Positions 6,805 through 39,659 of a stretch of DNA of 40,112 nucleotides are shown here, piece after piece. Position numbers and translations under genes: made by a program. The stretch is from a virus, in UHGV virus genome UHGV-1322810; one strand, written 5' to 3'. Each line of letters begins with the position of its first letter. Position 1 is the first letter of the stretch. The notes beneath the pieces were generated by a model. That model did not search any database and was not told where the DNA came from. It saw only the letters and a list, made by a program, of their open reading frames with translations.

Positions 6805-9008
6805 TGGCAGACGATAAAAAGATGGATGACTGGCATCGTAAGGCGCTATGCAACTTCGATAACGCCTACACCGCAACACAAGATATGCGCGAGCAGATCA
6901 TCGAGGCTCAACGATTCGTCAGGGTTTCAGGTGCTCAATGGGAAGGAAGCACAAACGCTGGTTACTCCTTCGATGAAGGACGCTTTGAGCATTACCCGCG
7001 ATTCGAACTAAACAAGATTGCCCGTGAATGTGATCGCATCATTGGCGAATATCGCCAGAACCGCATCAGCGTTCGATTCCGTCCTAAAGATGGTCAGGCA
7101 TCTGAGTCGCTGGCAGAGAAGATGAACGGCAAGTTCCGCGCCGACTATCAGGAAACATCAGGCGGAGAGGCTTGCGATAACGCATTCGATGATGCGGTAA
7201 CCGGTGGCTTCGGGTGCTGGCGCATGTGCGCTGACTACGAAGATGAGATGGACCCGAGCAACGAACAGCGGCGCATTAGCCTTCTGCCAGTCTATGACCC
7301 GGCTACATGCGTTTTCTTCGACCAGGACAGCAAGCAATACGACCGCAGCGATGCAACATGGGCAATGGAGATGTTTTCCATGACGCCTAAAGCGTTCGAA
7401 GCTGAATATCCTGATTCAATTGCTGCCAGCCTGAGTAAAGATGATTCAGGAACACAATACGACTGGTCTACACCTGACGCTATCTACGTAGGTCGTTACT
7501 ACGAAGTGCGCACAGAAAAGGTGAAGATTAGCGCATGGCGCAACCCGATCACCAATGCCACCGCCATTTATGACGAAGACCAGATAAAGGATATTGAGGA
7601 CGAGCTAAAAGAAGGTTCGTTCGAAATGATTGGCGAGCGTGAAGTTAAGAAACGCCGCGTGTACTGCGGTTTGCTATCTGGTGCTGAATGGCTGGAAGAA
7701 CCCAAGCGCATCCCTGGTGAACACATCCCGCTTATCCCTGTGTATGGGCGTCGAGCATTCGTTGATAACCAGGAGCGTATCGAGGGGCATGCCGCCAAAG
7801 CGATGGATGCTCAGCGGCTTGAGAACCTTATGGTTTCCATGATTGCTGACAACGCCACTCAGGCTGGCGGTGATGGGATACCGATCATTGATGTTGATTT
7901 TGTTCCTGGCCCTCTCATGGATTTTTGGGCTCAAAGGAATAAAAAAAGACCAGCTGCATTACCAATGACCAGCAGGAAAGATAAAAACGGCGCCGTTATC
8001 TCTGAAGCCAATGTCGCAGGATGGACACCGCCAACTCAAATGCCACCGGCGCTGGCCGGACTCCTGCAATACACCGGCACAGCTATCCAGCAGATCACCG
8101 GCGCATCCCAGCTTGAGAATATGCCAAGCAATGTAGCCACAGAAACAGTTGATAGCATCTTTAACCGGATGGATACGCAGTCCTATATCTACATGGACAA
8201 CATGGCGAAATCCATGCGCCGAGCTGGCGTAGTCTGGCTATCCATGGCGCGAGAGGTGTATGGCAGCGATACGCCGATGCGCATTGTGAACGAGGACGGA
8301 ACCGATGATGTTGCGCTAATGAATGGCGCGGTTATCGACCGTCAAACTGGTGAGGAGGTGGCGCTCAATGACCTGTCGCAAGGAAACTATGAGGTTACGG
8401 TTGATGTAGGGCAATCATTTGCAACTCGACGTGATGCAACGGTTAAATCGCTTCTCAGCATGTTGGCGTTGATTCCGCCGGGTACTCCTAAGCACGACCT
8501 TGTTTCATCCATGATCCTCGACAACATGGATGGTGAAGGCATCGACGACCTGAAAGAGTACAACCGCAATCAGTTGCTTCTTTCCGGTGTTATCAAGCCA
8601 CGCACACCAGAAGAGAAGCAGATGGTTGCTCAGGCGCAGCAAGCACAACAGAACCAGCCAGATCCAGCCATGGTTCAGGCTCAAGGTGTCCTCATGCAGG
8701 GTCAGGCAGAACTTCAGAAGGCACAGAACGAGCAGACTGCAATCCAGGTTAAAGCATTCCAGGCTCAGACTGAAGCGCAGGTAGCCGCGGCTAACGTCGT
8801 GAAGATCCTCGCATCAGCCGACAGCCAGCAGAAGTCCGATATCCGTGAAGCACTGAAATTACTTGGACAGTTCCAGCAACAGAGCGGAGACAATGCCCGC
8901 GCAGATGCAGAACTTGTCCTCAAAGGTCAGGCTCAGGGGCATTCGCAGCGCATGGATGTGACTAGCGTCCTTCAGAGCGCAGCACAGCAGCAAACACCAC
9001 AGCAGTAA
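6801..9008 (+). CDS. gp1: Portal protein (P22 gp1-like).
   Basis: Matches the P22 portal: EHIPLIPVYG, and the C-terminal Gln-rich barrel DPAMVQAQGVLMQGQAELQKAQNEQ. Confidence 0.9.
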   Translation: MMADDKKMDDWHRKALCNFDNAYTATQDMREQIIEAQRFVRVSGAQWEGSTNAGYSFDEGRFEHYPRFELNKIARECDRIIGEYRQNRISVRFRPKDGQASESLAEKMNGKFRADYQETSGGEACDNAFDDAVTGGFGCWRMCADYEDEMDPSNEQRRISLLPVYDPATCVFFDQDSKQYDRSDATWAMEMFSMTPKAFEAEYPDSIAASLSKDDSGTQYDWSTPDAIYVGRYYEVRTEKVKISAWRNPITNATAIYDEDQIKDIEDELKEGSFEMIGEREVKKRRVYCGLLSGAEWLEEPKRIPGEHIPLIPVYGRRAFVDNQERIEGHAAKAMDAQRLENLMVSMIADNATQAGGDGIPIIDVDFVPGPLMDFWAQRNKKRPAALPMTSRKDKNGAVISEANVAGWTPPTQMPPALAGLLQYTGTAIQQITGASQLENMPSNVATETVDSIFNRMDTQSYIYMDNMAKSMRRAGVVWLSMAREVYGSDTPMRIVNEDGTDDVALMNGAVIDRQTGEEVALNDLSQGNYEVTVDVGQSFATRRDATVKSLLSMLALIPPGTPKHDLVSSMILDNMDGEGIDDLKEYNRNQLLLSGVIKPRTPEEKQMVAQAQQAQQNQPDPAMVQAQGVLMQGQAELQKAQNEQTAIQVKAFQAQTEAQVAAANVVKILASADSQQKSDIREALKLLGQFQQQSGDNARADAELVLKGQAQGHSQRMDVTSVLQSAAQQQTPQQ

Positions 9009-32279: not shown

Positions 32280-32924
32280 ATGGCAAATAACGAGCCTGAA
32301 TTCCAGGTTCTTTCAGAAATGAAAGTTCCTGATGAGTATCAAGAGAGCGGTTTTATTTATATCCTGGCAAACGAGAGTATGCCCGGAATCTACAAGATGG
32401 GGATGACCACAAACCCCCCTGAGCAGAGGGCTAAAGAGATATCTGCTTCTACAGGTGTACCAACACCATTCACTGTAGTTGCTGCCTTTCATTCTAAAAA
32501 CCCAGCCAAAGACGAAAAGATGGTTCATGAGGCATGGGCAAAGGAAAGAATCAGTCTTAACCGTGAATTCTTTAAATTCTCTGATGATGAGCTTGAAGAC
32601 ACCATCAGCGAATTGAGCAGTGTTGTAGGCCCAGAAAGAAATGGCGATGTATGTGAACTGGCGATTTATGACGCCTTTATTTCGTTCTTTAGAGAGCCAG
32701 AAATCGAACTGACAGAGGAGTTAATCGACGTCGGCTTAGGTGGAATAAAGGGGCATATTCCTGCGGTGAAAAATTTCCTTTTGCAGGCTGGAATAACGTA
32801 TTCCAAGCGCCTAATTAGCCAATACAACTGCTCAATCGTTATCAACCCAGATGGTTCAGTGGTCCTCGTTAAATCAGTAGATGCAGAACAATACGATCCG
32901 AGGTTCCCATATGAACACAGCTGA
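32280..32924 (+). CDS. T5orf172/MUG113 (GIY-YIG-like) domain protein with an unknown C-terminal domain; inserted between cII and O.
   Basis: GFIYILANESMPGIYKMGMTT ... NREFF motifs typical of T5orf172. 214 aa; GGAG RBS. Confidence 0.6.
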   Translation: MANNEPEFQVLSEMKVPDEYQESGFIYILANESMPGIYKMGMTTNPPEQRAKEISASTGVPTPFTVVAAFHSKNPAKDEKMVHEAWAKERISLNREFFKFSDDELEDTISELSSVVGPERNGDVCELAIYDAFISFFREPEIELTEELIDVGLGGIKGHIPAVKNFLLQAGITYSKRLISQYNCSIVINPDGSVVLVKSVDAEQYDPRFPYEHS

Positions 32925-38004: not shown

Positions 38005-38285
38005 TGGCTAACCTTCAACTGGCAGTTAATGGTGAATACTTCGACCAGATGAAGTCAGGCGAGAAGAAATTCGAGTACCGGTTGCTGAATGACTACTGGC
38101 GAAAGCGCCTGGTTAACCGAGAATATGATCGCCTGATTATCACTCGAGGATATCCTCGCGCTGATGATTCCGACCGTCGAATTGATGTTCCATACCAAGG
38201 GTATAAGGTGCAGTCCATCATTCACAAGCACTTCGGTCCAGATCCGGTCAATGTTTTCGCTATCAAGGTGAATATTGAAGCCTAA
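38001..38285 (+). CDS. ASCH-domain protein.
   Basis: GxKxxExR motif (SGEKKFEYR) near the N-terminus; ~94 aa. Confidence 0.5.
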   Translation: MMANLQLAVNGEYFDQMKSGEKKFEYRLLNDYWRKRLVNREYDRLIITRGYPRADDSDRRIDVPYQGYKVQSIIHKHFGPDPVNVFAIKVNIEA

Positions 38286-38344
38286 ACATGAAGCCCTATC
38301 ATCGTGATGTATAATCCCTCTCAACGTATCGAGAGGGATTCATC

Positions 38345-38602
38345 ATGTCAGGTCATAACATCGCAGCGAAATCGAAAGAAGAGCAGGACAATGTTAACGT
38401 TGACCTGGCTGCATCCGGCGTCGTCTACAAAGAGCGTCTGAACATGCCAGTTATCGCTGAGCAGGTAGCTCGTGAGCAGCCAGGGCACTTGCAAGAATAT
38501 TTCATGGAGCGCGTTCGCTACTATCGTGAGCAAAGCCTGACTTTGCCGAAAGCATCCGATCCGCGCTATCTGGATATGGCTGCGCAGAACGAGAAAAAGT
38601 AA
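38345..38602 (+). CDS. Hypothetical protein.
   Basis: Preceded by TGTATAAT (-10-like) and the CCCTCTC...GAGAGGG hairpin. Confidence 0.45.
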   Translation: MSGHNIAAKSKEEQDNVNVDLAASGVVYKERLNMPVIAEQVAREQPGHLQEYFMERVRYYREQSLTLPKASDPRYLDMAAQNEKK

Positions 38603-38608
38603 TCCACA

Positions 38609-38651
38609 TTGACACCCATAAATTACGATTATACTGTATATGTGTACAGTA
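38609..38651 (+). promoter_or_regulatory. SOS promoter: -35 TTGACA, 17-bp spacer, LexA box TACTGTATATGTGTACAGTA overlapping the -10.
   Basis: CTGT-N8-ACAG with 18/20 matches to the LexA consensus TACTGTATATATATACAGTA. GAGGTG RBS then ATG at 38672. Confidence 0.75.
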
Positions 38652-38671
38652 TTTTATTGTGAGGTGTTTAT

Positions 38672-38998
38672 ATGGGCTTCCCATCTCCCGCTAACGACTA
38701 CGTTGAATCATGCCTGACGGTTGATCGCTTATGTCACATGGATGCCAACTGTATCGTCATTGATACATCATCCGGCTACGCAGTGATTAACCGCGCTCTC
38801 AGGGTTAAGCAGGGAGCGCCAATCCTCATCAATCACTGTGGACGCATTCAGTTCGCAAAGCTGATTGGTGAGGCACTGATAACATCAGAAGGTGAGGCGC
38901 TGGAAGGAGAATCTCTGGATGATGTTGATGTGATAGGCGTGGTTACGTTCCTCATCAACTCAGCTCTTCAGGAAGCCTCTGACTCATCACCGATTTAA
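38672..38998 (+). CDS. UmuD'-like protein (pre-processed, HumD-like; S24-family fold without the N-terminal arm).
   Basis: Starts MGFPSPANDYVE, matching the E. coli UmuD segment just after its Cys24-Gly25 cleavage site (CGFPSPAADYVEQ). C-terminus DVDVIGVVTFLINS resembles UmuD LDVFGVVIHVVKAM. Confidence 0.65.
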   Translation: MGFPSPANDYVESCLTVDRLCHMDANCIVIDTSSGYAVINRALRVKQGAPILINHCGRIQFAKLIGEALITSEGEALEGESLDDVDVIGVVTFLINSALQEASDSSPI

Positions 38999-39041
38999 AT
39001 CTCGCGCAACGTCAAGCAACATTACCCACCCTCAAAATTAG

Positions 39042-39050
39042 TGTTATAAT
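39042..39050 (+). promoter_or_regulatory. Extended -10 promoter-like element (TGtTATAAT) upstream of a structured ~115-nt region before ninB.
   Basis: Sequence motif only. Confidence 0.3.
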
Positions 39051-39203
39051 TAGGTCGCAGTCGGATTGAGCACCCGGCTGTGACCTCTGCATCTGATTGG
39101 GAAATTAGATGCGAAACACAAAGAGTACGACCTACCTTATGCCGTCAGCGTTATCTAATGCTGAGGGTTTTCTGCATTCTGCGTTACCTCTCGGAGGTGG
39201 CGT

Positions 39204-39659
39204 ATGAATATCCCAGAGCAGGGTATCAAGCTGCATGCTGGCAACTTCGCCGCCATCGGTCAGCACCTGCAACCATATCTCAATGACGGCCAATGCTATC
39301 GCCTCCAGTTAAAGCCATGGAGAGAGAAGCGTAGCCTTAGTCAAAATGCGTTAAGCCACATGTGGTACACGGAAATCAGCGAATACCTGATTAAATCCGG
39401 CCGCACTGACGCTACCCCTGAATGGGTTAAGCGCAACCTAAAAAAGACATACCTCGGCTGCGAGGAAGTCACCTACACCGATTTTATCACCGGCACCAAA
39501 GAAACCACCTGGGAACCTCGTCACACGTCTCAACTCGATACCGGAGAGATGCACATCTTCCTGTGCAAAGTCGAAGCGTGGTGCGCCCAGTTTGGTCTGG
39601 CGCTGACTATCCCAAGTAACTGTGAATTCCAACAATTGCGCGACAAGCAGGAGGCGTAA
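39204..39659 (+). CDS. ninB: NinB (Orf-family recombination mediator).
   Basis: SLSQNALSHMWYTEIS vs lambda NinB SLDQNRKLWACLGDVS; size matches; GGAGGTGG RBS. Confidence 0.7.
   Translation: MNIPEQGIKLHAGNFAAIGQHLQPYLNDGQCYRLQLKPWREKRSLSQNALSHMWYTEISEYLIKSGRTDATPEWVKRNLKKTYLGCEEVTYTDFITGTKETTWEPRHTSQLDTGEMHIFLCKVEAWCAQFGLALTIPSNCEFQQLRDKQEA

Follow-up and report, generated by a model that had tools for sequence, protein, structure and literature searches.

Why would a temperate phage keep, behind an apparent SOS promoter, the gene for a protein that begins where UmuD is cut and seems unable to cut anything itself? The question is raised by positions 38609 to 38998 of the virus genome UHGV-1322810, a stretch of 40,112 nucleotides (hereafter the window) that the Pfam assignments of its open reading frames (ORFs) identify as a P22-like temperate phage. 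The gene encodes 108 amino acids, and its relationships to host UmuD, to HumD of phage P1 and to similar genes of other phages show that it descends from the known HumD lineage, has been shortened, has lost catalytic function and is maintained by purifying selection. Its control region and coding sequence are composed of the following features.

38609..38614, + strand: −35 hexamer TTGACA, read from the sequence
38632..38637, + strand: putative −10 hexamer TACTGT, the left arm of the LexA box, separated by a 17-nt spacer from the −35 hexamer and assigned from the umuDC-like geometry
38632..38651, no strand assigned: predicted LexA (SOS) box TACTGTATATGTGTACAGTA, a 20-bp palindrome, from consensus match and conservation
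38661..38665, + strand: Shine-Dalgarno sequence GAGGT, 6 nt ahead of the ATG, read from the sequence
38672..38998, + strand: coding sequence of the 108-amino-acid shortened HumD/UmuD′-like protein with a catalytically dead S24 fold, from the ATG at 38672 (start MGFPSPANDYVE), by ORF translation and homology
38675..38710, + strand: UmuD′-type N-terminal arm GFPSPANDYVES, residues 2-13, by alignment to UmuD 25-36
38972..38995, + strand: acidic tail at the C-terminus, residues 101-108 (EASDSSPI), the last two being a proline and a hydrophobic residue, by alignment

A UmuD′-Type Arm on a Reduced S24 Body

The protein matches PHROG 3469 ("UmuD-like protein," ~106 amino acids) over its full length, with residues 1-102 aligned to positions 1-102 of the 106 in the profile (E 2.3e-43). 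A profile built from 26 relatives recovers UmuD among the PDB sequences (E 4.6e-8, residues 2-97 on UmuD 25-137) and aligns with P1 HumD along its whole length (hhalign probability 98.7%, E 1.8e-16). In the AlphaFold2 model, with a predicted local distance difference test (pLDDT) score of 79.7 and a core at 85-91, the chain is predicted to adopt the beta-barrel-like S24 fold, and the top Foldseek matches are all UmuD′, LexA or CI C-terminal domains. The profile search and a MAFFT alignment both place the start codon at the Cys24/Gly25 cleavage site of UmuD, so that a reading made earlier from the letters of the window alone (the sequence-only reading) was right in describing a product that starts at the equivalent of Gly25. 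Nothing remains N-terminal to be cleaved, as M-GFPSPA begins at the glycine and no Ala/Cys-Gly site with a preceding segment is present.

The resemblance to UmuD is very unevenly distributed. The arm is identical to E. coli UmuD 25-36 at 10 of 12 positions, and G, F, P, S, P, D, Y and E do not vary within it across UmuD, HumD and the shortened family, whereas the body shares only 13 of 85 positions (15%). Two deletions make this body 18 residues shorter in total: one of 12 residues, found in both the profile alignment and MAFFT, removes the Ser60 loop entirely, Lys97 aligns with Ala62, a position at which every family member sampled has Ala or Gly, and a second deletion, of 6 residues, follows. 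On these alignments, the catalytic dyad of Ser and Lys has been lost. The sequence-only reading had already recognized the missing dyad and the shorter body; its pairing of UmuD SGDSM with SSGYAV was slightly out of register, given the 12-residue deletion, and its estimate of about 10 missing residues was too low. Other HumD-type proteins (P1, RCS47, N15, HK140) keep Y52, a hydrophobic residue 54, S/T60, E93, a mostly aromatic residue 94 and K97, with Arg at residue 95, whereas Y52, hydrophobic 54, S/T60, E93, aromatic 94 and K97 are all lost in the shortened family. At the opposite end, a tail of the form D/E-x-x-P-(V/I)-(I/L/M) is common to the window protein, P1 HumD, N15 gp26 and HK140 gp28, while UmuD is without it. 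It is disordered in the AlphaFold2 model (pLDDT <50), and we take it to resemble the tail of the single-stranded DNA-binding protein (DDDIPF), a likeness on which we do not rely.

The shortened family is small: a search of 1.84 billion proteins gave 378 representatives at E up to 1e-3, almost all with lengths of 104-110 amino acids. Hosts of the sampled members are Citrobacter, Kluyvera, Klebsiella, Enterobacter, Escherichia, Pantoea and Erwinia, and the window protein is 50-59% identical to copies in phages of Klebsiella, Enterobacter and E. coli. No close relative was found among cultured phages, a megablast of the 1-kb region giving no match and the best protein identity being 57%. For comparison of loci, we gathered 88 homologous loci from IMG/VR together with one genome per species. 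One metagenomic protein of 141 amino acids (P0120) is a chimera that starts with an N-terminal segment of UmuD type, its cleavage site intact (...LFSDSMQC|GFTSPA), and continues into a body of the short family; it either arose by recombination between umuD of a host and the phage gene at the motif they share or is an artefact of assembly. A different 62-amino-acid ORF and a gene for a primase-like protein of 803 amino acids precede the short UmuD′-like gene in L016 and L018 (Pseudescherichia / Escherichia sp.), a setting that looks like that of P4-type satellites, and the LexA box there lies ~300 nt upstream rather than adjacent.

The ratio of nonsynonymous to synonymous substitution rates (dN/dS) against six orthologs is 0.04-0.13, and the gene is therefore under strong purifying selection. 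This bears directly on a scenario in which the gene would be a functionless, decaying remnant of a captured umuD or humD gene. The loss of the catalytic residues and of 18 body residues would be expected of such a remnant, and the P22-like phage BTP1 carries a clear HumD-type pseudogene. However, apart from the low substitution ratio, the ORF is intact, the length is fixed, motifs are invariant across genera, and promoter, box and Shine-Dalgarno sequence are conserved, all of which leaves decay barely tenable.

A Predicted LexA-Controlled Promoter

The near-consensus SOS box overlapping the −10 element of a TTGACA promoter, proposed in the sequence-only reading, is borne out at those coordinates. 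The box departs from the 20-mer consensus at 2 positions, both in the variable centre. Allowing up to 3 mismatches, the consensus 20-mer occurs at this single site in the 40 kb and in none of 100 shuffles, whereas chance alone would give 0.67 copies of CTGT-N8-ACAG per window, so that the core by itself is not rare. Upstream of the homologous genes, a box with at least 14 of the 20 consensus positions is found in 85 of the 88 loci; among relatives its CTGT/ACAG arms are fixed while the spacer varies, and it is retained despite differing upstream genes and unrelated genomic contexts, with TTGAC(A/T) or TTGAT(C) at an unchanged distance. The arrangement equals that of the E. coli umuDC promoter, TTGATC-N17-TACTGT, read directly. 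The window promoter escaped a generic scanner, as TACTGT agrees with the −10 hexamer at only 3 of 6 positions. Finally, the window leader aligns with the humD leaders of P1, RCS47 and N15, in which TGAGGT is likewise conserved and where the P1 record annotates a LexA binding site. The uniqueness of the consensus-like box, the umuDC geometry, the conservation and the alignment to the P1 site together support LexA control of the UmuD′-like gene, as predicted from sequence comparison.

Two architectures follow this promoter. The gene stands alone, with the box ~40 nt ahead of its ATG, in 29 of the 88 loci, the window among this solo type; in the other 59, the LexA promoter is followed by a gene for a 79-amino-acid partner, the stop codon of which shares bases with the UmuD′-like gene's ATG.

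A Proposed Adaptor for Host UmuC

What could a protein of this kind do once induced? Since no proteolysis is possible, the protein, which descends in shortened form from the pre-processed UmuD′ proteins of the phage HumD lineage, must act by binding. Only its arm is nearly identical to host UmuD′, and engagement of host UmuC through the arm is therefore proposed; its invariance across phages with widely differing repressors points, at the level of sequence conservation, to a conserved host target. In an AlphaFold model of DNA polymerase V (Pol V), one UmuD′ arm inserts beside the UmuC active site, and work cited in the same study indicates that armless UmuD′ dimerises without supporting mutagenesis and that a change of the first arm residue alters mutagenesis (PMC11791011). 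We tentatively put forward that the gene, under LexA repression, encodes an adaptor of HumD type whose arm engages host UmuC. Part of this best explanation is that the gene forms a self-contained SOS "moron" of LexA-repressed promoter, one ORF and terminator.

In the undamaged lysogen, host LexA bound to the box that doubles as the −10 element would keep the gene off. Upon damage, RecA* would promote self-cleavage of LexA, and transcription would begin early, before or alongside cleavage of the S24-type CI of the phage. Methionine aminopeptidase removes methionine before glycine; residue 2 being Gly, the initiator would be lost to leave the GFPSPA N-terminus that RecA*-mediated cleavage makes on UmuD. 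The arm could then engage host UmuC and supply or tune a translesion accessory function, free of the delay of UmuD processing, as the damaged prophage starts to replicate. In this scheme, we infer the binding of LexA, the removal of methionine, the identity of UmuC as target and the direction of the effect. The sequence-only reading had also stated that a UmuC partner is missing from the phage; this holds, as no Y-family polymerase was found in the window and its large ORFs all have other Pfam assignments.

Several observations weigh against the adaptor proposal. In the Pol V model cited above, the UmuC C-terminus docks on UmuD′ S36/T71/K73/E69, which correspond to UmuD S60/T95/K97/E93 (PMC11791011). 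Because all four of these modelled contacts are lost in the shortened family, a normal UmuD′2C-type complex is doubtful for this protein. The contacts in turn were derived by computational modelling and not from a solved structure, and an experimental structure of Pol V was not found among the PDB sequences. Curated models fail to recognize the protein, which also qualifies the kinship with S24 peptidases, UmuD and HumD anticipated by the sequence-only reading: while the UmuD profile match, the hhalign alignment to HumD and the Foldseek fold matches speak for it, Pfam returns no match even at E 10, and so nothing at the gathering threshold of PF00717, and the NCBIfam HumD model NF051876 scores 35.6 bits, on residues 1-33 only, against an equivalog cut-off of 120 bits. 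Lastly, translational coupling to the 79-amino-acid partner in two thirds of the relatives points to a different or additional complex.

The same losses can be read in the opposite direction, with the protein acting as a decoy that, having kept the arm and perhaps the dimer surface but no cleft for the UmuC tail, competes or heterodimerises with host UmuD or UmuD′ and lowers SOS mutagenesis during replication of the phage genome. The neighbouring gene is relevant here.

38345..38602, + strand: hot-like gene, encoding an 85-amino-acid DNA polymerase III theta homolog (Pfam PF06440 DNA_pol3_theta, E 5.5e-33)

Together with the proofreading-stabilising Hot, such a decoy would make a fidelity cassette. 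The loss of the UmuC-tail and RecA* contacts, with the arm retained, makes this a serious rival, although we consider it unlikely. It is in favour of this reading that UmuD molecules cleave one another (PMC9926225), so that UmuD paired with a dead subunit would stay unprocessed, and that the gene adjoins the theta homolog. Conversely, the functional precedent, HumD, is pro-mutagenic, and heterodimerisation is itself hypothetical, the position of the dimer-critical UmuD residue N41 varying in the family. It also counts against damping that UV-damaged phage genomes benefit from Pol V, as in Weigle reactivation.

A target other than UmuC should also be considered. In a scenario similar to DinI or PsiB, the acidic protein (isoelectric point 4.3) would bind the groove of the RecA filament, or the replisome (epsilon, alpha, beta), and adjust coprotease activity or polymerase switching. 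The strong acidity and a conserved DGEALEGExLDD patch would suit this role. UmuD and UmuD′ bind Pol III subunits, and hot or dinI adjoins the family in places: hot lies upstream in 6 of the 88 loci, all solo and with the window's closest relatives among them, and a divergent dinI adjoins the module in mEp390 and HK140 and in 8 of the 88 loci. These contexts are a minority, and on the same counts neither hot nor dinI was accepted as a defining neighbour of the family. The UmuD beta-clamp motif (residues 14-18) falls within the missing part of the protein. Moreover, the residues that contact RecA* in the cryo-electron microscopy structure, namely Y52, residue 54, F94, D91 and E93 of UmuD (PMC9926225), are not conserved (V54 being the UmuD residue), and E93 is replaced by Arg in the window protein. 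A competitive inhibitor lodged in the RecA* groove was dropped as a leading idea for this lack of conservation, and a general modulator of RecA* or the SOS response appears improbable.

The Two-Gene Module and the Antirepressor Question

The 79-amino-acid partner encoded in the two-gene loci corresponds to PHROG 3893, of no known function, and has no Pfam family. It is basic (isoelectric point 9.5), and AlphaFold2 predicts for it a winged helix of generic type (pLDDT 90), to which only weak structural matches were found. Examples lie at 3762-4001 in L014, 20749-20982 in mEp390 (L091) and 39158-39397 in the Cronobacter phage phiES15 (L100); tblastn and a hidden Markov model (HMM) search of the six frames found no copy in the window. 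The conserved codons of its C-terminal NMGR (AUGGGGAGG) supply the Shine-Dalgarno sequence of the UmuD′-like gene, and in HK140 the partner is coupled to a full-length HumD-type protein instead. Most of the two-gene modules are placed at the prophage end, past the tail fibres and adjoining attP or host genes, whereas the window copy stands alone, beside hot, in the interval from the replication genes to ninB. No study of either the shortened UmuD′-like family or the partner gene turned up in literature searches. Taken in order, a winged helix and then an S24 domain beginning at the cleavage site resemble LexA split in two.

The promoters of two-gene relatives share an upstream string, TTGATAGCC...TTGATCTG...ACTACTGTATATAAAAACAGTA, with E. 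coli umuDC. In the form ATTGATAGGC...TTGATCTG...ACTACTGTATATAAAAACAGTA, common with the chromosomal E. coli umuDC promoter, it occurs ~100 nt 5′ of the partner gene in L021, L026, L031, L047, L050, L058 and others. The shared string would therefore imply that the two-gene module derives from a captured head of umuDC.

Might the module instead control prophage induction? Small LexA-controlled antirepressors are known (Gifsy GfoA/GftA, 186 Tum, N15 AntC), and by analogy the dead S24 domain, with or without the partner, would bind a phage repressor and set off or coordinate induction, perhaps of other prophages in trans. The LexA-controlled dinI-antirepressor-irsA operon of Gifsy lies in the nin region, like the window gene (PMC3121763). 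A notable case is phiES15, an isolate obtained by ultraviolet (UV) induction: its repressor is a 134-amino-acid homolog of the non-cleavable Gifsy-2 GtgR (6862-7266, E 6e-12), and the only LexA box of its 40-kb genome (39118-39137) precedes gp51 and gp52, the partner and the shortened HumD-like protein. Likewise, Kp4865-1 carries a solo copy, has no detectable S24 repressor, and has its only LexA box at that gene.

These examples fit the window poorly. Its CI repressor is of the standard self-cleaving type, with HTH_3 and Peptidase_S24 domains (82.7 bits on Pfam PF00717), an Ala-Gly site, GDSM and KKL, and thus needs no antirepressor. In 12 module-carrying whole genomes scanned with a custom S24 HMM, 10 have S24 repressors, as does mEp390; a general correlation with non-cleavable repressors was accordingly discarded, only 2 of the 12 being without an S24 repressor. 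An arm invariant across phages with different repressors is a better fit to a host target, and hhalign gives a probability of only 0.2-0.3% for similarity to GftA, with the UmuD′-like and partner families both unrelated to it. Furthermore, the actor in phiES15 could be the partner, which the window does not have. An antirepressor is thus quite unlikely for the window gene. The suggestion in the sequence-only reading that the product might act on the S24-type CI is not favoured for the window, although phiES15 keeps a version of it alive: there the module may be the SOS induction switch of a UV-inducible phage. Such a role is perhaps present in some relatives, perhaps through the partner, and is a poor fit to the window.

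A wider scenario, possible but doubtful, is that the shortened family does not activate Pol V and serves as an SOS-timed decoy, its dead S24 scaffold retaining from UmuD′ the UmuC-inserting arm alone. It would either shut down or redirect error-prone synthesis or, with the winged-helix partner, form a "pre-cleaved LexA-like" two-gene module that is the actual SOS switch in phages such as phiES15.

Genomic Setting

The window combines P22 features (coat, portal, injectosome and tailspike head-binding domain) with an integrase, RecT and the replication genes O and P of lambda type. The interval from these to ninB, which starts at 39204, holds genes for a D12 adenine methylase, a DUF551 protein, a 94-amino-acid ORF and the Hot homolog, followed by the UmuD′-like gene. 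The hot-like gene has ~71% nucleotide identity to P1 hot, and the SOS promoter element begins 7 bp past its stop codon, so that the two genes form a hot-humD-type cassette in a P1-like order (as in RCS47). In SEN34, where hot occupies the same place, the downstream gene proved to be an unrelated lipoprotein-like ORF without a LexA box. The view of the sequence-only reading that no such gene was known from a P22-like lambdoid phage is partly right; lambdoid or P22-like phages do offer precedents, among them mEp390, HK140 and N15, the BTP1 pseudogene and the solo copy in the Uetakevirus Kp4865-1.

The 3′ side of the gene holds a putative terminator.

39145..39174, + strand: first intrinsic-terminator-like hairpin with U-run 3′ of the UmuD′-like gene, from a terminator scan

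It is probably the 3′ end of the LexA-controlled transcript. Its stem is retained in relatives via compensatory changes, and L011 has a terminator of its own immediately past the stop codon of the UmuD′-like gene. The same region also contains a perfect TATAAT (39045-39050, + strand), followed by hairpins at 39054-39084, 39089-39112 and 39145-39164 with a U-run (region 39045-39174). This three-hairpin layout is kept with different stem sequences in L002, L005, L012 and L010, and 10 of 28 predicted pairs are changed on both sides in an alignment of the window and five relatives that leaves out L010. Rfam returned nothing relevant on 38200-39400. The region is a candidate for either a small RNA of ~118 nt or a structured tR2-like terminator region.

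Elsewhere in the window, a gene for a 214-amino-acid protein with a T5orf172/MUG113 (GIY-YIG-like) domain (32280-32924, + strand) lies between the cII-like gene and replication gene O and is probably a moron or homing-type insertion. PADLOC gave no match for the UmuD′-like protein, the 79-amino-acid partner or Hot, and hence no tie to known defence systems.

Implications

UmuD′ acts as the switch by which the main mutator polymerase of the SOS response is armed, and the shortened family amounts to a natural experiment in the minimisation of UmuD′. Evolution has kept the arm nearly unchanged while discarding the protease site, the RecA* contacts and the modelled cleft for the UmuC tail. The main interest is thus a UmuD′ arm isolated on a stripped scaffold: the protein could reveal what the arm alone does to UmuC, and whether temperate phages raise or lower host mutagenesis on induction. 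This has a bearing both on stress-induced mutation and on how antibiotic resistance evolves in lysogens of Klebsiella, Enterobacter, Citrobacter and E. coli. The two-gene form could in addition represent a new class of LexA-wired phage regulators. Should the protein simply be equivalent to HumD, the outcome would be a useful annotation and little more.

Comparison with Known Systems

The closest known counterpart is P1 HumD, which McLenigan et al. in 1999 reportedly found to complement UmuD′. A note in the P1 record also states that HumD has been reported to complement UmuD′. The sequence-only reading had named HumD as the precedent, and the correspondence is closer than was claimed, extending to a homologous control region, the C-terminal tail and the hot-humD order. 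As in the window, HumD of P1 (also P7, RCS47 and D6) starts with M-GFPSPA, has a LexA box ~20 nt before the ribosome-binding site in a homologous leader, and ends in the same acidic DDxPVI-type tail (...EFDDCPVI in P1, ...EASDSSPI in the window). The two proteins are homologous end to end, both genes lie downstream of hot, and neither phage has a cognate umuC. In RCS47 the order is hot, 123 bp, humD; in P1 it is hot, lxr, LexA site, humD. In contrast, P1 HumD has 129 amino acids and keeps Y52, S60, E93, aromatic 94 and K97, whereas the window protein, with 108, has lost them all through the two deletions together with substitutions; and HumD function has been tested by experiment, whereas the window family is known from its sequences. 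The kind of gene is thus already known in HumD, while the shortened variant is little studied and carries the label "UmuD-like" in PHROG 3469.

Other phages extend the series. N15 gp26, HK140 gp28 and HK639 have HumD-like proteins, and mEp390 gp26 and phiES15 gp52 are shortened "UmuD-like" proteins of PHROG 3469, all with LexA boxes, as in the window. In the P22-like BTP1 (L098), at ~1935-2370 between gtrA and int, a HumD-type frame interrupted by a stop after 28 codons comes behind a LexA box (TACTGTATTAATATACAGTA); the region of this pseudogene is partly annotated as a hypothetical protein on the opposite strand.

Compared with E. coli UmuD′, the Pol V subunit processed by RecA*, the window protein is made directly and has neither the Ser/Lys dyad nor the RecA* contacts. 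Its gene is not followed by umuC, and the protein carries an extra C-terminal tail on a body only 15% identical.

The antirepressor operons (Gifsy dinI-gfoA/gftA-irsA, 186 tum, N15 antC) share with the window gene a LexA-box promoter outside the immunity region and small protein products; that of Gifsy-2 is also located in the nin region, and some window relatives share the association with DinI. They differ in that the window protein has no similarity to GftA and its phage a self-cleaving repressor without dependence on an antirepressor. Finally, the C-terminal domain of phage 186 CI is also an inactive, S24-like domain. It serves only in assembly, being fused to a DNA-binding domain and building repressor oligomers, whereas the S24 domain of the window stands alone and carries the UmuD′ arm.

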